Source of the DNA: Candidatus Eiseniibacteriota bacterium | GTDB taxonomy: Bacteria; Joyebacterota; Joyebacteria; Joyebacterales; Joyebacteraceae | NCBI GenBank assembly: GCA_043819135.1 | Contig: JBDRFG010000062.1 | Coordinates: 1-35,653 of the forward strand | Direction: 5' to 3' | Length of the DNA stretch: 35,653 nucleotides | Part shown: positions 4,467 through 32,528 of the stretch, one piece after another | Numbering within the stretch: the first letter of the stretch is position 1 | Layout: each line of letters begins with the position of its first letter | Position numbers and translations under genes: made by a program | The notes under the pieces: generated by a model | Seen by the model: only the letters and a program-made list of their open reading frames with translations | Told to the model about the DNA's origin: nothing | Database searches by the model: none

Positions 4467-4471
4467 GCCTA

Positions 4472-14543: not shown

Positions 14544-15179
14544 CTAGTCGTCGTCGACCGCGTCGTCAGCGAACGGGCACCACGGCGTCATCTGACCGGG
14601 CGTCCCGCCACCCATTCCGGGGCCGCCCATCGCGCTACGAGCGCCCATCGCGCTACCGGGACCGCCCTTTGCGCCGCCACGGCCCATCATACCACCGCCG
14701 CCCATTCCACCTCTGCGACCCATCATGCCCGGATGACCCTGACCGCCCATACCGCCATGGAGCAGCCCGCCAAGGCCCCGGTCGAAGAGCACCTTCTGGT
14801 CGTCGTCGAGAAGCGGGCGGATCTCCTTGTGGATCTGGAGCCTCAGCTTCGCCAGCTTCACTTTGATCGCGGATACTTCCTCGATGGTGTTCTCGATGGC
14901 GCCGTAGTCCGGGGCGGCATCGTCCTCGACGTCACGCGCCTCGAGCATGATGACCTTGAGCCTGTTCGTCAGCTCAGCCCGATCGTCGTTGTAATTGTCT
15001 TGGATCTTCTCTATCTGCTCCTGCTGCTCTGCTGTGAACGCCGGTCCCATGCCTCTTCCCATTCCCCGATGTCCTCCTCCGGCCCTGCCACGCATCGCGA
15101 CGGCGGGAACAGCTATCAGAGCCACAGCCACCAGCGCCAGTACCACGATCGTTATGAGCTTCCTCTTCTTCGACTTCAT
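14544..15179 (-). CDS. Spy/CpxP/ZraP family periplasmic chaperone or metal sensor
   Basis: Signal peptide, FTAEQQEQI and LLDDDQK motifs, Gly/Met-rich flanks; lies downstream of a ZraSR-like pair. Confidence 0.75.
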   Translation of the reverse strand: MKSKKRKLITIVVLALVAVALIAVPAVAMRGRAGGGHRGMGRGMGPAFTAEQQEQIEKIQDNYNDDRAELTNRLKVIMLEARDVEDDAAPDYGAIENTIEEVSAIKVKLAKLRLQIHKEIRPLLDDDQKVLFDRGLGGLLHGGMGGQGHPGMMGRRGGMGGGGMMGRGGAKGGPGSAMGARSAMGGPGMGGGTPGQMTPWCPFADDAVDDD

Positions 15180-15320
15180 CGTTCTCTCCCTTCGATTCCG
15201 GATCCTGAGGGCGACTGCCATCGGGCCGTCTCTTCTTCGGACCCCCGACCTCTTTCCTTCTGTGATGCCCGCGACCGTGGGTCGTGTTCCAGTCGCGAGC
15301 ATGTTCTGCCTCTTAATCAA

Positions 15321-15336
15321 AGCAACCGTGATGCCA
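15321..15336 (-). promoter_or_regulatory. Sigma54 (-24/-12) promoter for the Spy/ZraP-like gene
   Basis: Minus strand TGGCATCACGGTTGCT, matching TGGCA-N6-TTGC (GG-N10-GC). Confidence 0.85.
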
Positions 15337-15545
15337 AAACGGGCCGGGTCGACGACGATTCTTGCGGAGCGCGCAACGCCACACTGTTACACAAGTTGCG
15401 CGCGCCGGTCGCGCGGGCGTGCCGCGTTCGGAAAGCCGGAGGTGTGTCGTTTGTTCCCCAGGAGACCTGACGGGACACCGGAAGTGCGCAGGTTCTTCGC
15501 ACCCTTCGGACATGCCCGGAGGCGCGTGCGGTGAGCCCCAAACGA

Positions 15546-16889
15546 CTACAGGTCTATTGCGTATTCCTTGATCTTGTTCTGGAGGGTCCTTCTGGAGATG
15601 CCGAGGACCTTCGCCGCGTGGGTCCTGTTCCCCTCGGTCTGCTTGAGGGTCTTTATGATGGTGTCGCGCTCGACCTCGCGCATGGTCTTGCCGCCAGTGA
15701 GTGACGTCCCCTCCCCGCCGACGGACGAGGCCTGGACCTTGGCCGGAAGGTGCTCGGGGAATATCGTCTCGCCGCGGGAGAGCACGACAGCTCGCTGCAC
15801 GGCGTTCTCGAGCTCGCGGACGTTGCCGGGCCACTCGTAGTTCATCGCCATGCGCACCGTGCTCGGCGACATCTTCTTGGGCTTGCCGCCCGACGGCGCG
15901 TGGGCCCGCAGGAAGTGGTCTATGAGAAGCGGAATATCACCCACCCTGTCTCGCAGCGGTGGCAGCGTAATGGTGACGACGTTCAGCCGGAAGTAGAGGT
16001 CCTCGCGGAAGCTCCCCGCTGCTATCTCGGCTTCGAGGTCCTTGTTGGTAGCCGCGATGACGCGCACGTCAACCTTGACGTCCGTGGACCCACCGACGCG
16101 CTGCACGATATGATCCTGTAGAAACCGGAGGAGCTTCGCCTGGAGTGCCTCGGACATGTCGCCGATCTCATCCAGGAAGACGGTCCCTCCGTCGGCCGTC
16201 TCGAACTTCCCTCGCTTCTGATGAACGGCGCCGGTGAAGGCGCCCTTCTCGTGACCGAAGAGCTCACTCTCGAGGAGTCCCTCCGGGATCGCCGAGCAGT
16301 TGACCGCGACGAGGGGCTTCCTCACGCGACCGCTCGAACTGTGGATCTCCCGGGCTATCATATCCTTGCCGGTACCGCTCTCGCCGAGGAGGAGGACCGA
16401 CGCGTCACTGTCGGCCACTCGGTGGGCGATGTCGAGCACGTCACGAAGCGCGTCGCTCGCCCCGATGATGCCCGTCGCGAGCGCGAACTCGTCGCGTTCG
16501 TCCGCGTGCGACTCGGGCGTGCCCTCCATCCAGCGGCCGATGACCCGCCGCACCTCGTCGATGTCTATCGGCTTCGTGATGTAATCGAAAGCCCCGAGCT
16601 TCATGGCGGAGACCGCGGTCTCAACGGAGGCGTACGCCGTCATCATGATGACGCCGGTCTCGGGGCTTAAGCTCTTGATGCGTTCGAGCGCCTCGATGCC
16701 GTCCATGCCGGGCATGCGCAGGTCCATGACGACGAGATCGTGGAAGCCGGCCCGGAGTCGTTCCACCGCCGCCTCGCCGTCGCCGGCGGTGTCGACCGCG
16801 TGGCCGTCGCTCTCGAGGACGGCGCGCAGGAGTTCCAGCACGCTGGACTGGTCGTCGACGACGAGGATGTTGAGTGGCGCTGCCTCCAT
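15546..16889 (-). CDS. Sigma54-dependent response regulator (NtrC/ZraR family)
   Basis: Receiver (VVDD, DLRMP, KP), Walker A GESGTGKD, ESELFGHEKGAFTGA, FLDEIG, WPGNVRELEN, Fis HTH. Confidence 0.95.
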   Translation of the reverse strand: MEAAPLNILVVDDQSSVLELLRAVLESDGHAVDTAGDGEAAVERLRAGFHDLVVMDLRMPGMDGIEALERIKSLSPETGVIMMTAYASVETAVSAMKLGAFDYITKPIDIDEVRRVIGRWMEGTPESHADERDEFALATGIIGASDALRDVLDIAHRVADSDASVLLLGESGTGKDMIAREIHSSSGRVRKPLVAVNCSAIPEGLLESELFGHEKGAFTGAVHQKRGKFETADGGTVFLDEIGDMSEALQAKLLRFLQDHIVQRVGGSTDVKVDVRVIAATNKDLEAEIAAGSFREDLYFRLNVVTITLPPLRDRVGDIPLLIDHFLRAHAPSGGKPKKMSPSTVRMAMNYEWPGNVRELENAVQRAVVLSRGETIFPEHLPAKVQASSVGGEGTSLTGGKTMREVERDTIIKTLKQTEGNRTHAAKVLGISRRTLQNKIKEYAIDL

Positions 16890-16908
16890 CTACTCTCCTC
16901 TGGTCGCT

Positions 16909-18837
16909 CTAGAGCGGCGTCCCTCCACCATTCTCCCTCGACTTCGTCTCTCCGGCGACGGGGAGCACGAGCGAGAACGTCGTGCCCTGGCCCTGCGAGC
17001 TTCTGACCCCGACCCGCCCGCCGTTCTGCTCGACGACGCGAGACACGACGGTGAGACCGAGGCCGGTCCCCCTTGGCTTGGTGGTGTAGAACGGCTCGAA
17101 CAACTTGCCGACCTCTTCTTCGGACATCCCCTCGCCCGTGTCGGTGACGCCGATGGTCACCGTGGGCGGGCCGTCCGTGGAGCCGCTGACAGATGTCTCG
17201 ATGGTAAGTGTTCCGCCCTCGCCCATGGCCTCGATGGCGTTCAAGAGCACGTTCAGGAGCGCCTGCCGGATCTGCATCGGGTCGACGAGCACGTCCGGAA
17301 GGCCCTCACCGAGCTTCATCTCGATGCTGACGCGTTTGAACTGGGCGTCCTCAGACACGAGCGCCAGCGCCTCCTCGATCATCGTGCCGGAAGATATCTG
17401 CGTCCTGTCGGGCGCCACCGGACGCGCGAAGTCCAGGAGTTCCTGGACGACGCGGTCCAGCCGCTCGACCTCTTCTATCATAATGTCCGAGTAGCGCTCC
17501 TCCTCGGAGCCGGGCTCGAACTTCGTCCGGAAGAACTGCGCGAACCCCTTGAGCGAGCTCAGAGGATTGCGGACCTCGTGCGCGACACCGGCAGCCAGTC
17601 TGCCGAGCGACGCCAGATGGCGTTCCCTCTCGACGGCTTCCTTGAGCTCCTCGATCTCGCGCAGGTCCTGGAAGAGCAGCACGGTCCCGGCACGCTCGCC
17701 CTCTTCGTCCCACAGGGACGAGGCGGAGAGAGCGACGGGCACGGACCCGGCACGACCGACCACGCGCGTCTCGGTCTCGAGAACCTCCCGCTCGCCGGTC
17801 AGTACGCGGTCGACCTCCGCCCGGTCCGCGTCGTGGTCGACGCGCATGACGTCGTTCACGTCCGCCCCGTCGACGACCGCGGCCCCCAACCCGAGGATCG
17901 CCCTCGCGCCGGCGTTCACGGTCACGACGTGCCCGGTAGCATCGAGAGAGACGAGTCCGCTCGTCATGCTTTCGATGATGTTGCTCGTGTAGGAACGCAT
18001 GTTCTCGAGGGCGGTCCGCGTGGACCTGTGGGTCGCTATTATGAAGAGGAAGTAGATGGCCGTGCCGCCCACGAGAAGCAGGACACCCGCGAGCATGAGC
18101 GTGTAGTTTCTGGAGGAATGGAAGGCGGCCTCAAGTTCGGTGGCGTCGAGGCCCACTACGGCGGTGATCGGAACGGGAGCGTTGGGATCGACCGGACGGC
18201 CGAGGAGTTCCTCGAGCCTCGCCCGGACCAGCTCGGGGTCGGCCGGAGTGACCAGAGCAAGGCGCCCAGGCGGCCCCATCCTGCTGCGGCCCAACTGCCG
18301 GAGCCTGTGGTCGGCAGCCGCCGGAGGAGGCAGGTCGATCGAGACGCGATACTCGTAGACGCGGCGCCCGCCGGTCTCGACGATCCTGGTCCCGACCGCT
18401 ATGTCGACCCGCACGCCCGTCGGCCCGTGTCCCCCGGGAAGCCCGATGCGTCGGACGCCTCTGGGGTCACCACGGACGTCCGTTCTGACGTCGGCCTCAG
18501 GCAGTAGCCGGCCTACCTCCACACTGTCGCTATGTACGACAATCCTGCCGTCGCTATCCAGCAGGGCCAGGTAGGCGATGCCGGGGTGGGTCGATGACAC
18601 CTCCTCGAAGAAGGTGTTGATGCGGGTGGGGCGCCACGCGGGAGACATGAGCTCGGCCCTGAGGTCTGCCCGCGTGAACGAGAGGATCCCCCGGGCCTGA
18701 TACCAGAGGATCTCGGACAGCTGCTCCCGCCCTCGACCGATGTCGCGGTACGAGATGAAAGCCACGGTGATCGCCAAGAGGACGATGCCGATGACGATGG
18801 ATGTGATGGGTAGATAGGCCACTCGCTTCGAACGCAT
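16909..18837 (-). CDS. Sensor histidine kinase with PAS domain (ZraS/AtoS-like)
   Basis: Two TM segments, PAS, AHEVRNPL H-box, NVLLNA, DTGEG, FEPFYTTK, GTGLGL. Confidence 0.93.
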   Translation of the reverse strand: MRSKRVAYLPITSIVIGIVLLAITVAFISYRDIGRGREQLSEILWYQARGILSFTRADLRAELMSPAWRPTRINTFFEEVSSTHPGIAYLALLDSDGRIVVHSDSVEVGRLLPEADVRTDVRGDPRGVRRIGLPGGHGPTGVRVDIAVGTRIVETGGRRVYEYRVSIDLPPPAAADHRLRQLGRSRMGPPGRLALVTPADPELVRARLEELLGRPVDPNAPVPITAVVGLDATELEAAFHSSRNYTLMLAGVLLLVGGTAIYFLFIIATHRSTRTALENMRSYTSNIIESMTSGLVSLDATGHVVTVNAGARAILGLGAAVVDGADVNDVMRVDHDADRAEVDRVLTGEREVLETETRVVGRAGSVPVALSASSLWDEEGERAGTVLLFQDLREIEELKEAVERERHLASLGRLAAGVAHEVRNPLSSLKGFAQFFRTKFEPGSEEERYSDIMIEEVERLDRVVQELLDFARPVAPDRTQISSGTMIEEALALVSEDAQFKRVSIEMKLGEGLPDVLVDPMQIRQALLNVLLNAIEAMGEGGTLTIETSVSGSTDGPPTVTIGVTDTGEGMSEEEVGKLFEPFYTTKPRGTGLGLTVVSRVVEQNGGRVGVRSSQGQGTTFSLVLPVAGETKSRENGGGTPL

Positions 18838-18973
18838 GCTGTCTTGCCTCCCAGGCCATTAGACACCATGAGTTCGGAGGCGGGCAAGAGGAAAGCACGG
18901 CTGCGTGTGGCAGATGCCGCAGGCATTGAGGACGCCGGCCGCGTGAGTTCGCCACTGACGCGACGCAGGAGGC

Positions 18974-19810
18974 TCAGTAGTGGCCGAGCGTCCCCGAACT
19001 GCGCGCACGCCGGCAGCCCCACTCGAGCACGGCGAGCCCCGCGGCGAGCGATACTCCCGCGGCCACCGCGAGGAAGAGCAGAGAACCGGCAGACCCGGTC
19101 GCGGCGGCGCACCCGGCCCCGTAGCGCGCAACGGCGAGTGCGTGTGTGGTCGGCAACGCTCCCGCCCCCGCCTGGAGCCAGCGGGGCAGCATGTCGACCG
19201 GGAAGTAGACGCCACCGAGGAGCCCCGCGGCGCCGCTCACCGCCCACGAGATCGGTTCTCCCTCCTTCGAGACCATGATGACGCCGGCGGATGCCAGCCC
19301 GGCCCCGCACATGACGAGCAGGTACAACCCCAGAGCCGCGACCAGCGACGGCGAGAGTCGGAGGTTCAGACCGATGAGAGCAGCGGCGCCTGCCATCAGG
19401 AGCGCCCCGCCCAGGACCGTGATGGCGAGTTCGCCGGCGCCCGCCAAGAGCACCAGCACCGGTGTCGGCAAGCGGGTCGTCAGGAGCAGCTCCAGCGTCC
19501 CCTGGAGCTGTTCGCGCCGGACGGCGGAGCGGAACGAATGCAGCCCCGAACTCGCGAGCGAGTGCACGAAGATGCCCACGACGGCGAACGACGAATAACT
19601 CATCCCGTAGTGCTCGATGAATCCGGAGCCGGCGCACGACACGACACGACCCACGAACGAGAACGTCACGAGCGACAACACGAGCGATGCCAGACCGAGC
19701 GCGAGCTTGGCCCGGTAGCTCGCGTAGGTGGCGAGTTCCCGCCTGAAGAAAGCAAGAGCGGAGGTGAGCACGAGCGATACCGCGCCGGTCTGTCGAGGTT
19801 CCGTCCTCAC
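18974..19810 (-). CDS. ABC-2 type exporter permease
   Basis: About 6 TM segments, REQLQGTLELLL, GGVYFPVDMLPRWLQ..LPTTH; GTG start overlaps the ATPase stop (GTGA). Confidence 0.85.
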   Translation of the reverse strand: MRTEPRQTGAVSLVLTSALAFFRRELATYASYRAKLALGLASLVLSLVTFSFVGRVVSCAGSGFIEHYGMSYSSFAVVGIFVHSLASSGLHSFRSAVRREQLQGTLELLLTTRLPTPVLVLLAGAGELAITVLGGALLMAGAAALIGLNLRLSPSLVAALGLYLLVMCGAGLASAGVIMVSKEGEPISWAVSGAAGLLGGVYFPVDMLPRWLQAGAGALPTTHALAVARYGAGCAAATGSAGSLLFLAVAAGVSLAAGLAVLEWGCRRARSSGTLGHY

Positions 19811-20472
19811 GCTCCGACCCTCCCCCCGCCCAGCTCGATCACGAGGTCGCACCGTGAGGCAACCGCAGGGTCGTGCGTAGCCAGCACCACGGACCGTCCC
19901 GAGCGCGCGCGGCGCTTGAGCGCTCCCCACAAGAGCTCGCGCGCCCTTTCGTCCACCGACGCGAACGGCTCGTCAAGAACGAGCAAACGGGGCTCCCCGA
20001 GGCATGCCCTGGCCACGGACAGCCTGGCCAGCGCCCCGCGCGACAGGCTTCTGGCGGGCCTGGCGAGAAACCTCTCCAGGTCCAGCTCGGCGGCGAGCCG
20101 CATGATCTCCGCGGCGATCCGACCGGAGCTGATGCCCTTGAGCCGAGCGAAGAAGGCAAGGTTGTGCCTGGCCGACAGGCGCCAGTAGAACGACCGGCCC
20201 GTGCCCAACGACACTCCAATGGAGCGGCGCACCGCGGACTGCTCGGTCACGACGTCGCTACCGAAGACGAACCCTCGCCCTGACGACGGCCTGACCAGCG
20301 TCGCGATGATCCTGAGGGCGGTCGTCTTGCCCGCCCCGTTCGGCCCGACCAGAGCGGCGAGCTGTCCCTCCCCCACGGAGGCCGAGACCCCCGCGAGCGC
20401 CGGCACCTCTCGCCCCTTGTGCACGTAGTTCTTGCACACGCGCTCCAGCCTGACCGCCGGCGTTTCGTTCAT
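19807..20472 (-). CDS. ABC exporter ATP-binding protein
   Basis: Walker A GPNGAGKT, signature LSRG, Walker B LLVLDEP, H-loop ATH; start MNETP. Confidence 0.9.
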   Translation of the reverse strand: MNETPAVRLERVCKNYVHKGREVPALAGVSASVGEGQLAALVGPNGAGKTTALRIIATLVRPSSGRGFVFGSDVVTEQSAVRRSIGVSLGTGRSFYWRLSARHNLAFFARLKGISSGRIAAEIMRLAAELDLERFLARPARSLSRGALARLSVARACLGEPRLLVLDEPFASVDERARELLWGALKRRARSGRSVVLATHDPAVASRCDLVIELGGGRVGA

Positions 20473-20488
20473 TGAGCCCCCGTACCAC

Positions 20489-22027
20489 TCATGGAGCACC
20501 CGGCGCGGATCCGCCATCCGCGGGCCCGGACGCGGACCCGGGAGACACCGCGAACGACCACGCGCTCACTCTGCCGCCCGCCGGGGCGACGCGAACCAGT
20601 TCCGGCTCGGGCGTCCCGACGAGGTCGCACGCGATGAGCCCCGCGGCGCCCGCGACGTTGTCGAATCCCGCGCGCGTCGAACCCGTCTCGCCGTCCAGCA
20701 GGTACACACCCTCGACGTCCCAGATCAGCAGGTCGAAGGTGGAGCCTCCCGCGGCGGCGACCGACAGGTTCCCCCCGGCGGCGGCCGGAGCTTCTCCCAT
20801 GTCACCAACGAGCAGGCATGGATCGTAGACGTTCTCGCGGGTCTCGAACCTCCACATGACGTCGCCCGACCCGGGGTCGCACGCGTACAGGAACCCGTCG
20901 CTGCACCCGAGGACCAGCTCGCTGCCGGGGCCCCCATCGAGTTCGACGGGGGTAAGGCAGTTCACGGGCTCTCCGGTCTCACGGAGCGCGTCTCTGATGA
21001 ACCTGGGGATCTTCGGGTTTGTAAGATGCGACTCGTGTGACTCGACCCCGAACTGCAGCCTGTCGAGCACTTCGCCGGTCCGCGCGTTCATCACAACGAC
21101 CGCGCCCGCGAAGCAACCGACGGCCAGCTCGGCGATGCCGTCACCGAGGAAGTCCGCAAGCACCGGCGTCGAACTGACCACGCCCTCCGGGTTGAGGCGC
21201 TCGCGCCTACCCAACCCTACTTCCCACGCGAGTTCACCTTCGCCAGAGAGACACAGCAGGTGGTTCCCGTTCTCGGCGACGAGGACCTCGTCCCGGCCGT
21301 CTCCGTCCACGTCCAGCGCGGACGGGTGAGTGAACCCACTCGCGAACGGCCCGCTGGCGGAGACCGCATCGCGAGACCATAGCTCGCGCAGGTCGTCACC
21401 GGCGAGAGCCGCCAGAACGTCGTCCCGCTTCTTCCCCGCGGTGTAGACGATGCCCGGACCGAAGCCGTCCGAACTCCCGCCGGCCGGCCGCTTGCACACG
21501 CGAGCGCAGACCAGATCACCAATGGTTCCAGCCAGAGTGGCTCCGAGCACGTGCTCTCCCGTCGCACCGTCGAGCACTGAGAGCTCGTCGCCACACGCCA
21601 CGACCACCTCGACCGTCCCGTCGCCGTTAAGATCCGCCGCTACCACGCACGAGCGCTGGGGGAAGGCGGCGCGCCAGAACACGTCCCCACTTGCGCCGTC
21701 GAGAACCACGACGCCGGACGGTTCGTTGCGTCGGCCTCCGTGCAGCAGGACCTCGTGTCGACCGTCGCCGTCGAGATCCGCGACCGTCCCGCTGAGCAGC
21801 ACCTGCCCCGGAAAGCTGACGCTGCGCTCCCACAAAACCTCGCGCGTGAACCCGGGGCCGGGCTCCGACGGCAGCACGAGGTCCGGCGTGCGTGCGTCCG
21901 CAGAAATCGAACGGGTCAGGTCGGCCGCTACCGCGTCCGCGCGCATCGGGCCGGGCGGGGCGGCGAGTATCACCGCCGCCACCGCCACCCATAGCCACGC
22001 CCGCAGCCTTCTTCTAGTAATCGACAA
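20489..22027 (-). CDS. Secreted FG-GAP/PQQ-like repeat beta-propeller protein
   Basis: Repeats DLDGDGRHE, DLNGDGTVE, DVDGDGRDE, DFLGDGIAE plus W-containing blade motifs; probable TTG start at 22027 gives a signal peptide (start uncertain). Confidence 0.75.
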   Translation of the reverse strand: MSITRRRLRAWLWVAVAAVILAAPPGPMRADAVAADLTRSISADARTPDLVLPSEPGPGFTREVLWERSVSFPGQVLLSGTVADLDGDGRHEVLLHGGRRNEPSGVVVLDGASGDVFWRAAFPQRSCVVAADLNGDGTVEVVVACGDELSVLDGATGEHVLGATLAGTIGDLVCARVCKRPAGGSSDGFGPGIVYTAGKKRDDVLAALAGDDLRELWSRDAVSASGPFASGFTHPSALDVDGDGRDEVLVAENGNHLLCLSGEGELAWEVGLGRRERLNPEGVVSSTPVLADFLGDGIAELAVGCFAGAVVVMNARTGEVLDRLQFGVESHESHLTNPKIPRFIRDALRETGEPVNCLTPVELDGGPGSELVLGCSDGFLYACDPGSGDVMWRFETRENVYDPCLLVGDMGEAPAAAGGNLSVAAAGGSTFDLLIWDVEGVYLLDGETGSTRAGFDNVAGAAGLIACDLVGTPEPELVRVAPAGGRVSAWSFAVSPGSASGPADGGSAPGAP

Positions 22028-22190
22028 GGCAGACGTCCCTGTTCGAGCAGTTCCCGAAGTCGAACGCGCACTCGTCGACTCCACCGCAGTTGCCCCAGTC
22101 GATGAAGATGTAGCACATCATCGATGCGGGGATTGCCCCCTCGGTCACCGAGGACAGGGAACTACCGTTGGCCATCCTGAGATGCTTCAT
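22014..22190 (-). CDS. RiPP (ranthipeptide-like) precursor peptide 2, 58 aa
   Basis: MKHLRMANGSSLSSVTEGAIPASMMCYIFIDWGNCGGVDECAFDFGNCSNRDVCLVDY; RBS AGGAGG; leader similar to precursor 1. Confidence 0.88.
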   Translation of the reverse strand: MKHLRMANGSSLSSVTEGAIPASMMCYIFIDWGNCGGVDECAFDFGNCSNRDVCLVDY

Positions 22191-22230
22191 TGAGATTCCT
22201 CCTCTCATGAACAGCGGCGCCACGGCGGCG

Positions 22231-22407
22231 CTACTGCGTGTCAATGATACAGCTGTCCGCGGTGACGCATCCGTTGTCCAGGTCGAACAACCAGCACACG
22301 TCGGCGTTCGGACATTGCGAGTAGTCGACGAGGCAGATGTCGCTCACTTCTCTCTGCGCCGCCGGCACCGAACGGACCAGCCCGTTCGCGACCTTCATGT
22401 GTCTCAT
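22231..22407 (-). CDS. RiPP (ranthipeptide-like) precursor peptide 1, 58 aa
   Basis: MRHMKVANGLVRSVPAAQREVSDICLVDYSQCPNADVCWLFDLDNGCVTADSCIIDTQ; RBS GGAGGTGA overlaps the radical SAM stop codon. Confidence 0.88.
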   Translation of the reverse strand: MRHMKVANGLVRSVPAAQREVSDICLVDYSQCPNADVCWLFDLDNGCVTADSCIIDTQ

Positions 22408-22411
22408 CCCA

Positions 22412-24964
22412 TCACCTCCCCTCACGCATGTTGACACCACCCAGTTCGTCCCTACGCGTCCCGCCCGATTCTCGCCCGGCGTCGAACTCGGGACGGACCG
22501 CTTGCCGCGCCGCCTCCGCGAGCCTCGCCCTGCTCTTTTTGGGAAGAGACACGTAGAGCCACATCGACAGCTCCAGTATCCGCTGCGTTACTCGACACCG
22601 AGGTCCCGTCGGCCCGGCGAACGTTCCCTCGGCGGATTCGACGTCGTGCAGGCACGCCCCGCCGCACAGGCCGAACGCCCAGCAATCTGCGCAGGCGGCG
22701 GACCGTCGCCCCAGCGCGCCAAGCAATCTGCCGACGGCGAAGCGGTCGAGCCCCCCGCCCACGTCGCCGACGGCGTATCGCGCGTCACCCGCGAACCGGT
22801 GACAGAGGTACAGACGACCGTCGTGGTCGACGGAGACGTAGCGGGCGCCGGCGCCACAGGGCGCGAGACGCTGTCGACCCAGCTCAAGAGCAAGCACCGG
22901 CTCGATGAAGCACCCCGCCGATGGACGACGCCCCGCGCGTATCGACTCGAGCTCCGCGCGGGCAAGCTCGTCCAGCTCCCCAACAAGCCTATCGGCGAAC
23001 TCGGTGGTCATAGGCGCGCCGCTCACCGGCGCCAGGTGGACGACCCCGAATCCGAGTCCCACGAGATGGCCGACCAAGTCCGTCAGTGCGACGGAGTCCT
23101 CGGTCACGGTCGCTCGCGCGCCCGGACGCATGCCCTCTGGAAGCCCCCGGAGGTTAGCGGCTATTCTCTCGTACGAACCACCGCCGTCCGGAAATGGCCT
23201 GTGAGCGTCGTGGGAGTTCGCCGGGCCGTCTATGCTCACGAGAATGCGGACCCCGACAGCGTGGAGCATCTCGGCCACGTCCGGTGTGAGAAGTGTGCCG
23301 TTCGTCGTCATGTGAAACGAGATGTCCACGCCTCGGGTCGCCGCGCGGCCGCGCGCGTACCGGGCCGTGCGTTCGATGAGACCGGGATTGAGCAGCGGCT
23401 CCCCACCGAAGAAGACGACGGAGACGCTCCTCTCCCCAAACGACTCGCTCAGCAGGAGGTCGATCGCCGCGCGGGCGACATCGTCAGACATCAGTCTCGA
23501 TGTGTGAGGCTCACGTCCCAGATAGCAGTAATCGCAGGAGAGATTGCATCCCCCGGAGACGTTGAGCGCGACCGACGCGATTCCGCTTAGGCTAGGCCCA
23601 TCCGCGCCGGACAGGTGGCGCTCATCCATCGTGAATTCGAGGTGTGCCCCATGACAGAGCAGAGCGTCGCGCCGGCCTCCGGTGAGCACGGAGATCTCGC
23701 CCAGCGCCTCACCAACAGGACCCGGACCGTGGTTCATGCGCAGCACGTCCAGCGCGGCGCTGGACTCTCCGGCCCGGAGCCACCTGATGACGTCCGAGGC
23801 CAGCCCATCTGCTTCGAAGAAGAGCCCCGACCGCGTGTCGAACACGAACACGTCGTCGTCGACCTGGAAATCGTGGAGCCCGTCGGCGGGAGCACGACCT
23901 CGCCCGGTCGTGTTCCCGTCCAAACGGTCAGGACCCGGATCGGGACTCGCCCCCGAGTCGGTTCGCGCATGCGACCCGGCTTCCCCGGCGCGCTCCACGA
24001 TCGCGAGCCGCCTCGACATGCGGCCGAGCACGAGTCGCGCCCTGTCCTGTGACCGCCGGAGGTGCGATTCGAGGATGGTGGCGCCAAGGAGCGCAGCCCC
24101 GGCGGCGCCCCGGTCGTATCGCGAGCACACCAGTTCCACGAGTTCGTCCAGCGCTCCCGACCGCGCACCGAGCCGCAGGAGTTCGCCCGCCCCGCACGCC
24201 TCGGCGGGTGTCGCCAGACCGCTCCTCGTGGCCATCAGCCACGCCGCCGCCGACCACCGTCGCGCCGACAGGTCAGGCTCCAGGTCTTCTATGTCATCTG
24301 CAAGCTGGTAGGCCGCGTGGTAGTCCTCGACTATCCGCTCAGCCCGGGCGAGCGTGTCGGGACGTCCGGCCAGGAGGGCCATGCCAGCCGCGGAGGCCTT
24401 GAGCGGCGACATCTTGCGTCCGAGTTTCGTGAGGGTTTCCGCAAGGGCCTCCTCCCCGACGGCGGACCCCCCGTCGTCGGACATGAGCACGCGCGACTCC
24501 CACTCCAGGCTCGTGAAGAACTCGTCGAGGTATCGTTCGAGGTGAATCCAGAACGCGGACCCCGTCGGGAACAGACGCGAGTACTCGAGCACGAACCGAA
24601 GGAACGAGTCATCGGAGAGACGGGCGGCCGCGGGAGTGGGGCTCTCGTCGCCGTCGAGCCATCGGTCCTGCTGGAGGAAGTGCGCGGCCCCGAAGGCATT
24701 CCCGAGCGCCATGGTCCTCGCCGCCGCCAGGCAGTCGGCGAACGGGTGCGCGCCGGCCAGTGCGAACGGAAGGAGTATGACTATGTTGCCGGGTGTGATG
24801 CCGGGGTCGGCGCATCGTGACGGAAGGCAGGAGACATCGGGCCGCGCGGCCGGACGGCCAGCGCACGGCTCCGCGAGGTCCGCGCTCTGCCCACGGGCCT
24901 CCTCGAAGCGCCGCGCAACCAGCCTGCACTCCGCTCCGGGATCGTAGAAACCTATTCTGGACAA
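22412..24964 (-). CDS. Fusion maturase: isoprenoid-synthase-fold domain + RRE + radical SAM/SPASM
   Basis: QQDRWLD, RKMSPLK, YQLADDIED in the N-terminal helical domain; RRE-like HDFQVDDDVFVFDTRSGLFFE; CNLSCDYC, FFGGEPLL, TTNGTLL, VSIDG; SPASM CGAG..LYLCHRF..CADCWAFGLCGGAC..C. Start uncertain (TTG 24964; frame open to 25015). Confidence 0.88.
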   Translation of the reverse strand: MSRIGFYDPGAECRLVARRFEEARGQSADLAEPCAGRPAARPDVSCLPSRCADPGITPGNIVILLPFALAGAHPFADCLAAARTMALGNAFGAAHFLQQDRWLDGDESPTPAAARLSDDSFLRFVLEYSRLFPTGSAFWIHLERYLDEFFTSLEWESRVLMSDDGGSAVGEEALAETLTKLGRKMSPLKASAAGMALLAGRPDTLARAERIVEDYHAAYQLADDIEDLEPDLSARRWSAAAWLMATRSGLATPAEACGAGELLRLGARSGALDELVELVCSRYDRGAAGAALLGATILESHLRRSQDRARLVLGRMSRRLAIVERAGEAGSHARTDSGASPDPGPDRLDGNTTGRGRAPADGLHDFQVDDDVFVFDTRSGLFFEADGLASDVIRWLRAGESSAALDVLRMNHGPGPVGEALGEISVLTGGRRDALLCHGAHLEFTMDERHLSGADGPSLSGIASVALNVSGGCNLSCDYCYLGREPHTSRLMSDDVARAAIDLLLSESFGERSVSVVFFGGEPLLNPGLIERTARYARGRAATRGVDISFHMTTNGTLLTPDVAEMLHAVGVRILVSIDGPANSHDAHRPFPDGGGSYERIAANLRGLPEGMRPGARATVTEDSVALTDLVGHLVGLGFGVVHLAPVSGAPMTTEFADRLVGELDELARAELESIRAGRRPSAGCFIEPVLALELGRQRLAPCGAGARYVSVDHDGRLYLCHRFAGDARYAVGDVGGGLDRFAVGRLLGALGRRSAACADCWAFGLCGGACLHDVESAEGTFAGPTGPRCRVTQRILELSMWLYVSLPKKSRARLAEAARQAVRPEFDAGRESGGTRRDELGGVNMREGR

Positions 24965-25049: not shown

Positions 25050-25321
25050 GCAGATCATGGTTCCAGGATGAGGTACGGCCGGCAGGTCTGGTGCGGGAGA
25101 GCGTCCGAGATAGCCTGCCGGCCGTCGTGGGCTGACTCCATCCCCGCGGAGGTGAGAGCAAGTTACTGACCAAGCTAACTGCCTGGGATGGAGCTATGAC
25201 GAAGAGCCGTGTCGTAGGTGCGTCCTGCTTCTGGATGCTTCGGCTCTTCCGGGGGTAACCTTTCACACTGTCTATATCGATTACAGCCGCGGCGCCTCTC
25301 CAGCATGCAGCTGTCTTGATC

Positions 25322-25396
25322 TCAGCCGAGGAACGGCGATGCAATTCCGATGAGCAGGATCACGACCATTACCTTTGTCTTCGCCGCACTCGGCAT
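25322..25396 (-). CDS. Putative small hydrophobic peptide, 24 aa (MPSAAKTKVMVVILLIGIASPFLG)
   Basis: ATG preceded by GAGGTTGAGGAA; basic N-terminus then hydrophobic stretch; too short to appear in the ORF track. Confidence 0.4.
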   Translation of the reverse strand: MPSAAKTKVMVVILLIGIASPFLG

Positions 25397-25559
25397 TTCC
25401 TCAACCTCTATGTGATCTCCGCGGGGACTTCCGCGGTGGTCTCATAAACGGAAGGAGAAGCAGACCAAAGAGCGACCGGACTCGCCCCCCCTGCGTATCT
25501 AACACCCTGGCCGCCTCTCCCTCCGTATTCCGTTGTCAAGTCATCCACATACTCTTAGG

Positions 25560-25575
25560 GCATCAAGTGTGCCAA
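25560..25575 (-). promoter_or_regulatory. Putative sigma54 promoter pointing into the RiPP cluster
   Basis: Minus strand TTGGCACACTTGATGC: TGGCAC -24 box and GG-N10-GC spacing; -12 box ATGC instead of TTGC. Confidence 0.65.
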
Positions 25576-26000: not shown

Positions 26001-29000
26001 CTACCCGATCCCGTACTTCCTCATCTTGGCATGGAGGCCCGGCCGCGAGAGCCCCAGGAGGTCCGCAGCGGCCTGCTTGTTCCAGCCGGTCCTGCCGAGA
26101 GCCTCAAGGATGCGGCTCTTCTCCAGCGCCTCCACCTCGTCCTTCAGTGAACGCCTCAGCGCCTCGTCCGAGCGGAGCCCGGTCTGGTACTGGTCGCGGA
26201 GCTCGGGACGAACCTTGTCGATACCGATGACATCATTGTCCGCCGCAAGCGCCACTCCCCTGCGCACGTCGTTCTCGAGTTCGCGGACGTTGTTGCCGCG
26301 CCAGTCGTGCTTCGTGAACAGCTCGCGCACCTCGCGGCTGAACCCGGGGATCGACTTCCCCTCGCGCTCGCAGTAGAGCTTGAGGAAGTGCTCCATAAGG
26401 AGCGGGATGTCGTCCGGACGGTCCCTGAGCGGCGGGATCTCGATGACGACCGCGCAGAGCCTGTAGAAGAGGTCGCGCCTGAACCGGCCTTCCTTGACCT
26501 CCTCGGCCAGGTCCTTGTTGGTCGCGGAGATGACGCGCGCGTCGCTGGTCCGGGTCACGTTCTCCCCGACTCTGCGATACTCGCCGTTCTGCAGGAACCG
26601 GAGCAGCTTCACCTGCAGCTGGGGGCTCATCTCGCCGATCTCATCCAAGAAGAGCGTCCCCTGGTCGGCAACCTGCACCAGGCCCTCGCGGTCACGGTCT
26701 GCGTCGGTGAACGAGCCCTTGACGTGGCCGAACAGCTCGCTCTCCTGCAAATGCTGCGCGATCGCGCCCGCGTTCAAAGCGACGAACTTGCCGGTCTTGC
26801 TCCGCCCGCCCTGATGGATGGCGCGAGCGATGATGTCCTTGCCGACGCCCGACTCGCCGCGGACGACGATGGGCACCCGGCTATCCCTTAGCCGGTCGAC
26901 GCTCGCGAGGATCCGCTGCATCTCGGGGTTCCTGGTGATGAACCCTGATGACTCGGGTGATGTCCCGAGCTCTTCGGCGAGACGGCCGTTCGCTTCCCAC
27001 GCGCTCGATTCGCCCAGTCGCGAGCAGGCAACGCCCAGCATCCTTGCGGCGGCGCCGATGAACTCGATGTCGCTCTGGGTGAAGGGTGTCGAACGCTCGC
27101 TAACGAAGCGGTCCGCATACAGGACATATGAGCGGTCGCGGCGGAACCCGACCTTGGCCGGGATGAGCGCGACGGCGCCTACGTCCTGCGGCGCGCCCCC
27201 GTCGGAGGAACGCCCGTCGCTGATCACGAGAGGTCTGGCGTGCCCGCGCGCGGCCAGAGTGGTGCGGACGAACCGTGTGGCCTCGACAACGCCCCTGCCG
27301 GACCGGTCCACGGAAGTGGCAATGACCGGCGCCGCGCCCTCGGTGAGCGAGAAGAGCAGCAGCCTGTCGGCGACCAGCACGTCGGCGATCTCTTCGGCGA
27401 ACTGATGGAGATCCTCCGCGCGCGGCTCCGCGGTCTCGAGGAACCTGTATCCCTCTGCTATGGTCGAGTACCTCGCCTGCAGCGACACCGCCGCGTCGGC
27501 GAGCCCCGCGTCCAGCTCTCTGAGTATTGCGTCGACCTCGGCCAGGCCCTGCGTATCGTGCCCGACCTCAAACTTCAGCCGCGACCTCTCGAGCCATGTT
27601 CTGGCGCGGTCGGGCTGGCCGCCCCTCTGAAGCGCCTTCCCGCGCTCGAGCTGGCAGCGCGCGACCCAGCCGCCGGCCCCGACCCTGGTGAAGATGGCCT
27701 CTGCCGCCGAAAAGCGCGCCTCGATCCTGTCGAGGGGAAGCTGACCCTGCGGCGCCGAGTCCCTGAGGCCCACACCGTCGGCCATGGCGGTCCTGGCGAG
27801 TTCCATCGACTCGCCTATCCTGCGCAGCATCTCCTCGGCCCGCGTGATCAGCACCTCGGCGGCTGTCGCCTCACCCTTCGCGTAGCAGACGCTGGCCAGC
27901 ACGCGCAGGGTGGCGCCCTCCTCGAGCTTGTCGCCGATCTCACGAGTGAGCTTGATGGCCTCCGAGCAGTCGCGTTCGGACTCCTCGAGCCTGCCGAGTC
28001 TGAACAGAACGTCGGCGCGGCGGCGAAGCACCTCGCCCACGACGTCACTGTTCGAAGACAGCCTGTAGGCGCATCCCAGAGCCCTGTTCAGGGTTCCGAG
28101 CGCGTCCTCGTTCCTGTCCTGGTCCATTTCGAGGTGGCCGATGAACTCGAGCGCCAGCGCCTCGGCCCGGAGGTATCCGCGCTCCTGACTCGTATGAAGC
28201 GCCTCGTCGAAGAGGCCGCGCGCCCTGCCCCACTCGCGCCGCTCGCGGCACACGTTGCCGAGCGCCGTCGAGGCCGCGACGAAACCTCTGGTCGCGCCGA
28301 TTCTCGAATAGATGTCACGCGCCTCGTTCAGATGGCCCTCGGACTCGGCCCAGCGCGACAGCTTGTAGAGGATGATGCCGAGGTTGGTCAGCCTGTCGGC
28401 TATCGCGGCCGAACGTCCGAGCCGTCTGTCGATCTCGAGCGCATCTTCCAGGTGCTCGAGCGCGCCGTTCAGATCGCCCATGCGCTTCGCGAGAATGCCG
28501 AGGTTGTTGTAGGCCGAGGCGAGCCCGGCCTCGTCGCCCAGACGCTTCTGCGAGACGAGGTAGTCGGTGAAGTAGTCGCGAGCCGCGGTGATGTTGCCGA
28601 GCTCTGCGTTGGCTATGCCGAGGGCCTTGCCGGCCTCGGCGAGCAGAGGATTGTCGGGAGACATCCTCAGGGTTTCGTACGCCTTCTGAGCGGCTCGGAG
28701 CGCCTCGTCGTAGCGGCCGCTCTCGATCTCGACCCTCGCGAGGACGACGTTCGCCTCGGCCCAGACCGAGGTCGCGTTCTCATCGAGTTCGAGGTCGTCA
28801 AGCTTGGCGCAGTAGTTACGCGCGCTCCTGTAGTCGCCAAGACCCAGGTGGCACCTCGCGATGCGCACGAAGAGCCCTGCGGCTTCCATGTCGGAGAGCT
28901 CAGCTCCGAGTTCCCCTCCACCTGCCTGAACGAAGTAGCCAAGCGCGTCCGAGTAGCTGTCGGACCCGAGATAGACGTCTCCGAGTCGGATGGCCGTCAG

Positions 29001-29093
29001 CGCCGCATCCCTTGCGCTGCGCGATTCCATCGCCTTTCGGAACGCCTCCAGCATCTCGCGTTCCCGGCTATTGTCCGGTCGCTGACGTGCCAA
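26001..29093 (-). CDS. TPR-repeat sigma54-dependent transcriptional activator (TPR - GAF-like - AAA+ - Fis HTH)
   Basis: TPR motifs (ASAYNNLGILAKRMGD, LTNLGIILY), GESGVGKD, ESELFGHVKGSFTDA, LFLDEIGE, RRDLFYRL, NVRELEN, C-terminal HTH; no receiver domain. Confidence 0.9.
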   Translation of the reverse strand: MARQRPDNSREREMLEAFRKAMESRSARDAALTAIRLGDVYLGSDSYSDALGYFVQAGGGELGAELSDMEAAGLFVRIARCHLGLGDYRSARNYCAKLDDLELDENATSVWAEANVVLARVEIESGRYDEALRAAQKAYETLRMSPDNPLLAEAGKALGIANAELGNITAARDYFTDYLVSQKRLGDEAGLASAYNNLGILAKRMGDLNGALEHLEDALEIDRRLGRSAAIADRLTNLGIILYKLSRWAESEGHLNEARDIYSRIGATRGFVAASTALGNVCRERREWGRARGLFDEALHTSQERGYLRAEALALEFIGHLEMDQDRNEDALGTLNRALGCAYRLSSNSDVVGEVLRRRADVLFRLGRLEESERDCSEAIKLTREIGDKLEEGATLRVLASVCYAKGEATAAEVLITRAEEMLRRIGESMELARTAMADGVGLRDSAPQGQLPLDRIEARFSAAEAIFTRVGAGGWVARCQLERGKALQRGGQPDRARTWLERSRLKFEVGHDTQGLAEVDAILRELDAGLADAAVSLQARYSTIAEGYRFLETAEPRAEDLHQFAEEIADVLVADRLLLFSLTEGAAPVIATSVDRSGRGVVEATRFVRTTLAARGHARPLVISDGRSSDGGAPQDVGAVALIPAKVGFRRDRSYVLYADRFVSERSTPFTQSDIEFIGAAARMLGVACSRLGESSAWEANGRLAEELGTSPESSGFITRNPEMQRILASVDRLRDSRVPIVVRGESGVGKDIIARAIHQGGRSKTGKFVALNAGAIAQHLQESELFGHVKGSFTDADRDREGLVQVADQGTLFLDEIGEMSPQLQVKLLRFLQNGEYRRVGENVTRTSDARVISATNKDLAEEVKEGRFRRDLFYRLCAVVIEIPPLRDRPDDIPLLMEHFLKLYCEREGKSIPGFSREVRELFTKHDWRGNNVRELENDVRRGVALAADNDVIGIDKVRPELRDQYQTGLRSDEALRRSLKDEVEALEKSRILEALGRTGWNKQAAADLLGLSRPGLHAKMRKYGIG

Positions 29094-29136: not shown

Positions 29137-29484
29137 CTACAGCAGTACTACGAGGAAACCGAAGAGGGTCCTGATCTCGATACGAAGCACGCCGAGACGT
29201 CCGAGCAGCCGTGCTTCGTCGATCACATCGTCGTCCTCTTCGTCACCGCCGGTCGCGGCCGGGTCGCCGTTGGTCCTGCCAATAACGGTGTTGTTGCCCC
29301 AACGGTCATCGTCGCCGCCGTCGATGTCCTCGCCGTCGTCACCGTCCTTGAAAGTGGTGACAGTTGTCACGCTGTCACCAGTGACTGACGGGCGCTGCAG
29401 CGTCGCTGAGCCTGCAGGAACACTGCAGAGGCCAAGACTCAGCGCGAGGACCACAAGCAGGCCGAGAATTCTCCTCGTACTCAC
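29137..29484 (-). CDS. Small secreted acidic protein, 115 aa
   Basis: GTG start behind AAGGAGG; signal peptide MSTRRILGLLVVLALSLGLCSVPAGSA; Asp/Gly-rich middle with GGDDDRWG; hydrophobic C-terminus. Confidence 0.7.
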   Translation of the reverse strand: MSTRRILGLLVVLALSLGLCSVPAGSATLQRPSVTGDSVTTVTTFKDGDDGEDIDGGDDDRWGNNTVIGRTNGDPAATGGDEEDDDVIDEARLLGRLGVLRIEIRTLFGFLVVLL

Positions 29485-29662
29485 TGCCTTCCTCCTTGTG
29501 GTTGCTGTCTGGAGATCTCCAAACAAACAGAACTAAACAAAACTCGAGGTCGCGTCATCGTACGTCTTCATCGCCGGGATTGATGCGCCAATACTCCGCC
29601 CGGCGGCGGATTGACGCTGCTACTAGTGGGGGTGTCCGGTGGGCAACTGCTTGCCCAAGTCC

Positions 29663-29692
29663 ATACTACCACGATCGGGGCCAACCGGTCAA
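29663..29692 (-). promoter_or_regulatory. Putative sigma70 promoter for the small protein/activator pair
   Basis: Minus strand TTGACC-18 nt-TAGTAT with TGn extension; palindrome GGGCAA-N4-TTGCCC (29641-29656) immediately downstream. Confidence 0.5.
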
Positions 29693-29733
29693 GAGCCGCT
29701 CACGGATTCGGAGGCGGATTCAGCGAAGGCCGC

Positions 29734-30504
29734 TCAGGAACAGCCCATCCCCACCTTGTCTGACACGTGCCGGACCATCGGGTTCAGGCATCGCTCGAAC
29801 ATGAGCCGGCCTTTCTCGGCCGTCGCGGCCGACGGCCGCCCCTCGGCCCCGCTCCAGCCGGACTCCGGGGGAGCTGTCCCAATACCCTCGGGGAAAGCCC
29901 GGAACCGCGTTTCACACTCCTCCTCGCCATCCGCCGCCAGGTCCATCCGCACCAGATCCGGGTGCAGGAAGAGCATCAGGGAGGTCTCCGCCTCGCAGGC
30001 GTGCTCGACGCCATCCTGTTGAGTGAGGATGTCGCTGATGTCGGTCCAGTACGGAAAGAGGATGGAGACGTCGCAGAGCCCCTCCCCGCATGCCGGCTCC
30101 GCCAGGAGCGGCAGGGCGCCCTGCTTGAGCGCCTCCTGATGCGCGAAGGAATACCCGTCTATCGCGCAGCCGTGCGCCGTGACAATGAAGAACTGCCGGA
30201 ACCCCTGGCGCTCCCAGTCCTCCAGGACGTCGGTCACGAACGCCCTCAGGGCCTCGGGAGAGAACCCGGCGGTCCCCGGCACGAACCGGTCGCAGGGGAG
30301 GTTGACGCCGTAGCCAACGGTCGGGGCCGTCGCGACGCCCGTCGCCTCAGAGACACGGGTCGCGAACGCCTCCGCGATGAGTGTATCGGTGGCCAGCGGG
30401 AGATGCAGCCCGTGCTGCTCGCACGTGCCCACGGGGATGATGAGAGCCCGACACCTCTCGAGGTAGTCGGCGACGTCCTTCCAGCTCATCTCGGAGAGTC
30501 TCAT
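29734..30504 (-). CDS. Creatininase/creatinine amidohydrolase family protein
   Basis: IPVGTCEQHGLHLPLATD, AHG, HACEAETS, ATAEKG motifs. Confidence 0.9.
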   Translation of the reverse strand: MRLSEMSWKDVADYLERCRALIIPVGTCEQHGLHLPLATDTLIAEAFATRVSEATGVATAPTVGYGVNLPCDRFVPGTAGFSPEALRAFVTDVLEDWERQGFRQFFIVTAHGCAIDGYSFAHQEALKQGALPLLAEPACGEGLCDVSILFPYWTDISDILTQQDGVEHACEAETSLMLFLHPDLVRMDLAADGEEECETRFRAFPEGIGTAPPESGWSGAEGRPSAATAEKGRLMFERCLNPMVRHVSDKVGMGCS

Positions 30505-30590
30505 CTCTTGTCCTCGCGGGGAACGCGATCGGGGTCCGTCGTGACAGGGGCCGCGCGGGCGGGCGGGATAGCGCCATCAGTCCAGCGCGT

Positions 30591-31040
30591 CTAGAGAAGG
30601 AAATCGTCCATGTCCGAGTCGCGCTTCTTCGGGCGCTCTACGGTCGGGCGTTCCTCTGGTCTGGCGGGGCGTGGCCTCGTCACCGGCTGGACTCCGACCG
30701 GCAAAGGCTCGACGCCGGTCCCTCCCCCGGCGGTAGCGGGCCGTCCGCCTTCTGTGGCCCCGGCGTCCACCGCCCAGCGGGACATGAACTCGATGAAGTC
30801 GCGCAGGTTCCGGTCGCCGGTGTCCCAGTTCGCCTGGTACCAGACCCACCTGCCGTCCTTCTCCTCGACGGCGAGCCCGGCGTCCTTGAGCTTCCGAAGG
30901 TGATACGAGACCTGAGGCTGCGTCAGCCCCAGCTCGGCGACGATCTGGGAGACGTTCTTCCTGATGCCGAGAACGGCCAGAAAGACCGAGAGGCGGGTGG
31001 TGTCGCCCAGTTCCTGAAGAGCGGAGAAGGGCCGCAGCAT
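30591..31040 (-). CDS. ArsR/SmtB family transcriptional regulator with low-complexity tail
   Basis: LGDTTRL, QPQVSYHLRKLKDAGL..KDGRWVWY winged HTH. Confidence 0.88.
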   Translation of the reverse strand: MLRPFSALQELGDTTRLSVFLAVLGIRKNVSQIVAELGLTQPQVSYHLRKLKDAGLAVEEKDGRWVWYQANWDTGDRNLRDFIEFMSRWAVDAGATEGGRPATAGGGTGVEPLPVGVQPVTRPRPARPEERPTVERPKKRDSDMDDFLL

Positions 31041-32509: not shown

Positions 32510-32528
32510 CCTTCTGGTGGTGAGTGCA

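Follow-up and report, generated by a model that had tools for sequence, protein, structure and literature searches.

We analysed a contig of 35,653 nucleotides from Candidatus Eiseniibacteriota bacterium (JBDRFG010000062.1, positions 1-35,653; assembly GCA_043819135.1), referred to here as the window, and found in it an operon encoding two paralogous 58-residue precursor peptides, A and B (P0001 and P0002), beside a radical SAM maturase that carries an isoprenoid-synthase-fold domain at its N-terminus (Table 1). The reading we favour, which we hold to be reasonably probable, is that these genes make prenylated ranthipeptides by means of one bifunctional enzyme. The evidence consists of genes, conservation, domain identity and motifs, and from these the chemistry of the peptides is predicted. 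The original prediction, made from the letters of the window alone, described the peptides as thioether precursors, which agrees with our results; it overlooked that the maturase has a prenyltransferase-like domain fused to it and that each core holds a single tryptophan.

Precursor peptides and predicted thioether rings

The original prediction placed two paralogous precursors with conserved leaders in this region, each with five cysteines followed by an aspartate three to five residues later and with hydrophobic motifs alternating with polar ones, and all of this is borne out. The leaders MRHMKVANG (A) and MKHLRMANG (B) are present, as are the motifs CLVD, CPNAD, CWLFD, CVTAD and CIID in A and CYIFID, CGGVD, CAFD, CSNRD and CLVD in B, giving Cys-to-Asp offsets of +3, +4, +4, +4, +3 and of +5, +4, +3, +4, +3 respectively. 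The sequence DxCLVDY does occur in both, at the first predicted ring of A and the fifth of B, but its leading residue is not invariant among homologs of A, where it is Asp or Glu, or is shifted. It had also been proposed that the listed reading frames start in the wrong place, and we agree: they begin too early, at upstream GTG or TTG codons (22440 for A, 22244 for B). The starts of the homologs agree instead with the ATG codons at 22407 and 22190, each of which has a purine-rich ribosome-binding site. Variable columns number 20/14/29 at codon positions 1/2/3 in 24 A cores and 15/11/29 in 22 B cores, and this excess at third positions indicates coding selection on both genes. A profile of A retrieves B with an E-value of 4.5e-8, and finds no further precursor copies in the source genome apart from A and B.

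The homologs come from a scan of 34 loci, three of which stop short of the precursors and two of which lie in unrelated genomes, leaving 29 usable loci from 28 genomes. These yield 58 precursors (29 A-type, 25 B-type and four third paralogs), of which 24 A-type peptides, omitting three close duplicates and two divergent peptides from genome G008, and 23 B-type peptides were aligned. Five Cys, five Asp, the leader Asn8 and one Trp are invariant in both alignments. In A these are Cys25/32/38/47/53, Asp28/36/42/51/56 and Trp39, with Tyr29; in B they are Cys26/35/41/48/54, Asp31/39/44/52/57 and Trp32, with an invariant leader His3 and a terminal Tyr. In both, the residues that link leader and core are free to vary. 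Because the pattern used to extract the precursors required an Asp or Glu after Cys, the Cys-acid register is partly selected; the pattern made no demand for Asp over Glu or for Trp, and the acceptor is Asp, never Glu, in every aligned homolog. A database search added 98 homologs of B. The full register is present in 96 of them, and of the other two one carries an insertion of one residue and the other a frameshift; this count is partly circular since the search was word-seeded. When the cores are shuffled 200,000 times such a register arises at a frequency of 3e-4 for A and 2.5e-5 for B. A product of two components, as had been suggested, is not obligatory, given that four genomes hold a third paralog and that G008 has two copies of the locus (L030, L048, L049), in each of which a single precursor, with the A-type register, has a relocated Trp.

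The maturase probably starts at the TTG codon at 24964, although its frame is open to a TTG at 25015, from which its residues are numbered here; the Atlas record begins at residue 18, as the 24964 start does. A spliced start was considered and rejected, since a plausible start codon lies just before the conserved region at every locus. Residues 376-830 align with CteB across the leader-binding RRE domain, the radical SAM core and SPASM (E 4.8e-40), with the CX3CX2C cysteines at C490/C494/C497 and the same seven SPASM cysteines (C720, C738, C775, C778, C784, C788 and C807). This architecture, which is that of the CteB/PapB/QhpD group, stands beside a precursor in 26 of 26 maturases. Among NCBIfam models, PapB scores highest (248.7 bits), then QhpD (238.8 bits), followed by the nif11 and SCIFF maturases. 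All of these scores lie below the cut-offs, and the distance of the enzyme is part of the reason.

Six catalytic-proximity positions have been set on CteB (PMC10288494). In the window maturase these are Y498, F536, T570, S594, H739 and R740, and they read Y-F-T-S-H-R in all 26 full-length maturases of the family. An annotated QhpD from Paracoccus reads identically, whereas CteB reads F-F-T-S-H-Q; the difference after the AuxI cysteine is thus His-Arg in the maturase and QhpD against His-Gln in CteB. QhpD is reported to form Cys-Asp and Cys-Glu thioether links (PMC13692751), and because the maturase shares its six active-site residues it very probably forms Cys-Asp thioethers. PapB reportedly accepts Cys-Xn-Asp in vitro with n = 0-6, fails if Asp precedes Cys, and requires a conserved Arg372 thought to lie near the carboxylate (PMC9413430), a position that, judged from numbering, would be R740 here. 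A likely outcome, from the register of the homologs, is five in-line rings per peptide, in which the pairing and the linkage to the Asp beta-carbon are inferred.

As in the ranthipeptides of the PapB/QhpD type, we find the enzyme architecture, QhpD-like proximity residues and conserved Cys donors with acidic acceptors C-terminal to them, and the assignment of A and B as precursors for an enzyme of this type, already part of the original prediction, is supported by the invariant Asp acceptors and the active site. Acceptors that vary among homologs, which the original prediction had named as a refutation, were looked for and not found. Freyrasin-like cores had been proposed more specifically. 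The likeness to PapA/PapB of Paenibacillus polymyxa (PMC9413430, PMC12373016, PMC8172795) extends to an RRE-radical SAM-SPASM enzyme, Cys followed by Asp and a leader Asn, with PapB as the best NCBIfam model. The freyrasin precursor model NF037957 gives weak matches in four of the 24 A homologs (best E 0.018) and none in the window peptides or the 23 B homologs, and the maturase scores 248.7 bits against a cut-off of 340 for NF047865. Freyrasin has six X3 motifs, whereas here there are five in-line motifs of X2, X3 and X4 spacing, one to three paralogous precursors, an invariant Trp, a 320-residue prenyltransferase-like fusion, a beta-propeller and sigma-54 control. The comparison with SCIFF had rested on the leaders and is not sustained: CteA/CteB (thermocellin) has a similar RRE-SAM-SPASM part, but it has Thr acceptors and His-Gln instead of Asp acceptors and His-Arg, the six-Cys precursor model TIGR03973 matches none of the 47 A and B homologs scanned, and the maturase reaches 177.3 bits against 425 for TIGR03974. 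The system would work like freyrasin and QhpC in its rings and like PalX or ComX in its lipid, and it falls outside the freyrasin, SCIFF and quinohemoprotein amine dehydrogenase (QHNDH) families.

The fused domain, the single tryptophan and rival readings

The N-terminal domain (residues 25-345) is a candidate peptide prenyltransferase of the PalQ/ChrP type, as judged from alignment and a structure model. Pfam gives no match for the first 345 residues of the window maturase on its own, and PF00348 matches weakly in 10 of 25 members of the domain family. All 20 matches of a PDB profile search are prenyl synthases or transferases, and the Atlas clusters for the domain are named 'class 1 isoprenoid biosynthesis enzyme'. 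[quoted passage not shown] Of 27 copies of the domain, 25 were aligned, and all keep D117/D121, K206, H233, Y236-Q237 and D240/D241/D244 in the motifs H-F-L-x-Q-D-x-x-x-D, L-K and H-x-x-Y-Q-x-x-D-D-x-x-D. The first Asp motif (i, i+4) and the second, Gln-x-x-Asp, are therefore present in 25 of 25, and the RRG that follows the first Asp motif in chain-elongating synthases is absent. D117/D121, Q237 and D240/D244 correspond to the published PalQ residues D89/D93, Q197 and D200/D204 (PMC10853753), and Y236-Q237 to Y215-Q216 of Ord1 (PMC12510300). Two ordinary isoprenoid synthases are encoded elsewhere in the genome and are not found by the domain profile.

Stand-alone relatives place the domain in a peptide context. 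A search with one of these matched two records in a plasmid collection, from Paenibacillus and Tolypothrix, whose enzymes score 58.9 and 74.5 bits with the domain profile; no chain-elongating synthase scores above 21.7 bits with it. In Paenibacillus cellulosilyticus (L083:6001-8502) an unannotated PalQ-like gene is followed by five tandem NHLP-type genes with a near-terminal Trp, four of which have an N-V-R-K start recalling the reported PalX core (PMC10853753), and the Tolypothrix enzyme is followed by an annotated NHLP gene. Homology is shown to the Paenibacillus enzyme, which is PalQ-like by context, and the likeness to PalQ itself rests on published residues rather than on sequence comparison. 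With PalQ/PalX, ComQ/ComX and the P domain of ChrPC (PMC10853753, PMC13290415) the domain shares the fold, two Asp motifs and a Gln before the second, and as with PalQ and ComQ a histidine kinase lies nearby. It differs from these systems in being fused to a radical SAM enzyme that probably forms thioethers, in having precursors with short RRE-type leaders instead of NHLP leaders, and in the internal, ring-flanked position of the Trp. Of the features expected of a trans-IDS-like Trp prenyltransferase, an all-helical fold, the Asp motifs and an adjacent precursor with a conserved Trp are present.

The tryptophan was not part of the extraction pattern, and yet exactly one is found in each of the 58 precursor cores, none having zero or two, in a source genome where Trp makes up 1.2% of residues in long reading frames. 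It occupies core position 15 in A, 7 in B and in three third paralogs, or 28, and is always adjacent to a ring residue. The A-type Trp is lost in two G008 peptides and the B-type Trp in the third paralog of genome G013, and all three of these peptides have their Trp at position 28. These two independent relocations were not selected for, and they are modest evidence that a Trp is required while its place is flexible. Every characterised trans-IDS-like peptide prenyltransferase is reported to target Trp (PMC13290415).

The domain profile finds 1346 protein clusters. Among the best 150 of these, 39 are at least 600 residues long. SPASM occurs together with a radical SAM motif in 17 of the 39 and without one in 12, and the other 10 have neither. 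The twelve SPASM fusions (P0021, P0023, P0025-P0029, P0032, P0033, P0038, P0046 and P0081) carry RRE/SPASM modules, and such dead radical SAM enzymes are perhaps kept as leader-binding scaffolds. Two of the radical-SAM-dead fusions bear an extra N-terminal cyclase-like part. Class II terpene cyclase matches occur in four of 56 scanned relatives of the domain, the same pairing of prenyltransferase domain and cyclase that is described for ChrPC (PMC13290415). A protein search with the alignment of the distant fusions returned no further named fusion, and cluster records assigned these fusions no taxa.

Several points weigh against a bifunctional enzyme of the kind we favour. On the side of the fused domain, the fold search places chain-elongating synthases above Ord1, although no structure of a peptide prenyltransferase in this family has been solved, and ordinary synthases in the PDB alignments also have a Gln ahead of their second Asp motif. 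No genomic context was obtained for the distant fusions in either of two sets of metagenome stretches (0 of 44 and 0 of 424), so that for the fusions Trp-bearing precursors are shown in this family only. The relocation of Trp amounts to two events, Tyr, Ile and Gly positions near it are equally conserved, so that conservation alone does not single out Trp, and PalQ is reported to need a terminal Trp (PMC13290415) where the one here is internal and flanked by rings. On the side of the rings, the maturase lies under the curated cut-offs for both PapB (340) and QhpD (453), and one review states that PapB mostly fails with X2 and X4 spacing (PMC8172795), whereas in each A/B pair six of the 10 motifs are hydrophobic and five of 10 are other than Cys-X3-Asp.

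The alternative that survives best, and which we consider unlikely though worth keeping in mind, is that the peptides are plain ranthipeptides, their rings made as proposed, while the N-terminal domain makes an isoprenoid, transfers one to another target or serves as a scaffold for dimerisation. Fold searches cannot tell a synthase from a transferase, and Trp is common in membrane-binding peptides. The domain is, however, not a dead scaffold, because its catalytic residues are invariant in 25 of 25 members, and it has no RRG of the chain-elongating type. Its closest relatives of known context also adjoin precursors that end in Trp, and in other relatives it is still joined to RRE/SPASM modules from which the radical SAM motif is gone.

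Much less probable is a role as thioether-caged small subunits like those of QHNDH, in which a modified Trp would serve as cofactor or anchor and the peptides would assemble with the secreted propeller in the periplasm. The maturase does have the active-site profile of QhpD, QhpC likewise has Cys-Asp/Glu thioethers (PMC13692751), and the operon has a propeller, as that of QhpD/QhpC does, together with an ABC exporter and the inheritance of a core gene. Against this, the substrates are 58-residue paralogs in which Cys and Asp are matched 5:5, leaving no spare Cys for a cysteine-tryptophylquinone, the Trp position is variable, and the propeller has no specific quinoprotein match. Neither a haem subunit nor a flavin monooxygenase or S8 peptidase was found in the operon by Pfam/NCBIfam matches of neighbours and gene order, and the same scans gave no QHNDH haem alpha subunit and no QhpC-family gamma subunit. 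A little less probable again is a different pattern of cross-links, either sactionine links to the alpha-carbon, nested pairing or a partial set of rings: the sactisynthases GggB and QmpB are reported to resemble ranthisynthases (PMC10288494) and several homologs have extra Asp residues as alternative partners, but the invariant Asp acceptors fit recognition of a carboxylate and the profile is identical to that of QhpD. That A and B are unmodified metal-binding or disulfide peptides lying by chance beside a radical SAM gene is very improbable, since for all their Cys and Asp and the ZraSR/ZraP-like module after the operon, they have an odd number of cysteines, an RRE-type leader and an RRE-SPASM enzyme of the thioether clade 4 bases away in all loci.

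Operon, control region and neighbouring genes

The gene order is constant wherever contigs extend, running from the TPR-sigma-54 activator through the maturase, precursors, beta-propeller, ABC ATPase and ABC-2 permease to the kinase and regulator, with 4 bases between the maturase stop and precursor A. The maturase was found in 28 of 30 genomes of the same family, covering eight genera. Of 30 unrelated genomes, two (G053, G058) give a match, over the radical SAM part only and without such precursors. A radical SAM match was also seen on a Streptomyces plasmid. In a phylum sample, which comprises this one family alone, the operon is present in 29 of 31 genomes, the two misses being 57% and 65% complete, and in 20 of 20 genomes with completeness of 90% or more and contamination of 5% or less. 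One metatranscriptome contained 7% of the words; its contigs are of low depth, cover 11 of 30 bins and include none over the precursor region.

Table 1. Coordinates of the operon and adjoining features in the window
Feature	Position	Strand	Basis
TPR-containing sigma-54 activator	26001..29093	-	directly upstream in every long-enough locus
Sigma-54 -24/-12 promoter-like site	25560..25574	-	29/29 loci with both flanks
Structured leader, long stem and invariant apical hairpin	25397..25549	-	conserved; 5/33 pairs with double changes
24-residue basic-then-hydrophobic open reading frame ending IASPFLG	25322..25396	-	first cistron behind sigma-54 site
Conserved non-coding blocks	25064..25321	-	between 24-residue frame and maturase; end is a 10-bp GC-rich stem without U-run
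Maturase, candidate bifunctional	22412..24964	-	likely start TTG 24964; frame open to TTG 25015
Trans-IDS-like domain, residues 25-345	23981..24943	-	alignment, PDB profile matches, fold model
RRE (leader-binding) domain	23636..23890, approximate	-	aligns with CteB N-terminus, PDB 5wgg
Radical SAM core and SPASM	22586..23578	-	motif and alignment
Precursor A (P0001), 58 residues	22231..22407	-	homologs aligned, codon bias, Trp survey
Precursor B (P0002), 58 residues	22014..22190	-	homologs aligned, database homologs, codon bias, Trp survey
FG-GAP/PQQ-like beta-propeller	20489..22006, start ~22006 uncertain	-	Pfam, homologs, model
ABC transporter ATPase, DrrA-like	19807..20517, start approximate	-	Pfam/NCBIfam, gene order
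ABC-2 permease	18974..19930, start approximate	-	Pfam/NCBIfam, gene order
Histidine kinase	16909-18837	-	always next downstream in loci
Sigma-54 response regulator	15546-16889	-	always next downstream in loci

The region upstream of the maturase was surveyed in 30 supplied loci, 29 of them with both flanks, and the TPR activator likely drives the operon. The whole 2.7-Mb genome has 34 sigma-54-like motifs, and the 24-residue frame is the sole such short hydrophobic frame behind any of them. All 29 of 29 loci preserve its frame and TGA stop, variation at the three codon positions is 6/6/15 (22 loci), and the two G008 loci lack the usual ATG. Readthrough of the TGA, as selenocysteine or into a lipoprotein, was rejected, the downstream frame being unconserved and often closing at once. 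Further conserved stems upstream of the maturase show double changes in five of 18 pairs, and Rfam gives no significant match for the leader. It is possible that the region 25064-25574 holds an undescribed leader peptide or small RNA, and candidate roles for the 24-residue product are a regulatory leader peptide, a small membrane protein or a ligand of the TPR activator. Quorum sensing of the RRNPP type combines a TPR regulator of that family with oligopeptide import. The Opp/Dpp binding protein (PF00496) has no match in this 92% complete genome, which weakens the reading of the frame as a re-imported pheromone, and the TPR part of the activator has generic TPR proteins only among its 36 PDB matches.

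A paralog of the activator, with 53% identity in the TPR part, lies elsewhere in the source genome (G000:C99, ~18469-22500; L085). Behind it too stands a sigma-54-like site, and then a stretch of ~500 bases that has no long gene and closes with a GC-rich hairpin. Seven of seven genomes of the same genus conserve this DNA, which may encode a sigma-54-driven small RNA.

Downstream of the precursors, the propeller has signal-peptide-like N-termini in relatives and a conserved basic helical insertion, and its model (pLDDT 87.3) resembles generic propellers. No peptidase domain was found in the ABC exporter by Pfam/NCBIfam scan. The kinase and sigma-54 regulator form, with a ZraP/Spy-like gene, a group (14544-18837, minus strand) that resembles ZraSR-ZraP, with a sigma-54-like site ending at 15336, and they may be a circuit separate from the peptide operon. 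A PDB search with the A profile gave chance matches only. A TldD/PmbA pair lies 11-13 kb downstream (8040-10758, minus strand), and 14 relatives also carry it on the same contig and strand. The remaining minus-strand genes include PolX/PHP, RtcB and archease in a row (1081-4903), an ordinary RNA/DNA repair group, and, upstream of the activator at 29137-35623, a creatininase-family gene (29734-30504) with several reading frames that have no Pfam match, some of which are kept in relatives.

Proposed pathway and its significance

The pathway we propose would begin at the sigma-54 site, from which the TPR activator would turn the operon on. Next, the shared leader would be bound by the maturase through its RRE. 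This leader is of the type M-K-H-L-x-x-A-N-G, and the binding is proposed by analogy with CteB and PapB; the CteA leader is reported to bind its RRE as a beta-strand (PMC6231123), and the leader Asn has been proposed to act in binding to the RRE of PapB (PMC9413430). The radical SAM/SPASM part would next, and with high probability, link the sulfur of every Cys with the beta-carbon of the conserved Asp that follows it, so that each peptide would have five in-line rings, of 4-6 residues. Provided that the rings are formed, the fused domain would then quite probably use Mg2+ and an allylic diphosphate from the ordinary synthases of the cell to prenylate the single Trp. The leader might be cut by a protease outside the operon. 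TldD/E is reported to cleave the leader of microcin B17 (PMC5810440), and TldD/PmbA is only a candidate here because the whole region is syntenic. The ABC-2 transporter might export the lipidated, acidic and rigid cores, and the secreted propeller might bind or present them.

For the product we tentatively suggest a cell-surface or signalling role, with an antibiotic role rather doubtful and other uses making up the rest. The former is favoured since inheritance of the locus is that of a core gene and since a histidine kinase accompanies both of the known ComQ/PalQ systems. A fuller and more speculative version, which taken as a whole is also doubtful, is that the operon is phylum-wide core machinery for a ring-locked and prenylated ComX-like signal or surface ligand, exported, held by the propeller, read by the adjacent kinase and under TPR-sigma-54 control, with the structured leader and 24-residue peptide in the first transcript.

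No description of such a fusion was found in the literature searched, largely without subscription papers, and an earlier mention is possible; the main text of the paper on the phylum (PMC11323493) does not mention RiPPs (peptides made by ribosomes and modified after translation), radical SAM enzymes or terpenes. Prenylated thioether peptides as such are already known among the lanthipeptides, made with a different enzyme fold: MppC/MppM provide a precedent for the logic of the product in leader-dependent Trp prenylation of a thioether peptide, but use a stand-alone ABBA-fold prenyltransferase and lanthionine chemistry (PMC12715784). If our reading is right, Cys-Asp thioether stapling and Trp prenylation, known separately, would be united in a single enzyme guided by the leader. 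Designed peptides are already stapled with PapB-type enzymes (PMC9413430, PMC12373016) and lipidation is wanted for peptide drugs (PMC12715784), so that a natural enzyme which staples and lipidates would be a directly testable tool, consisting of one gene and a 58-residue substrate and able to act on an internal Trp as well as on rings of X2, X3 and X4 spacing.

Clusters for peptide natural products are generally patchy in distribution. The presence of the operon in all 20 good-quality genomes therefore points to a routine physiological job in this uncultured seep and sediment lineage, and the wider domain family of 1346 clusters, with its degenerate radical SAM and cyclase fusions, would represent a larger unexplored set of prenylated peptides.

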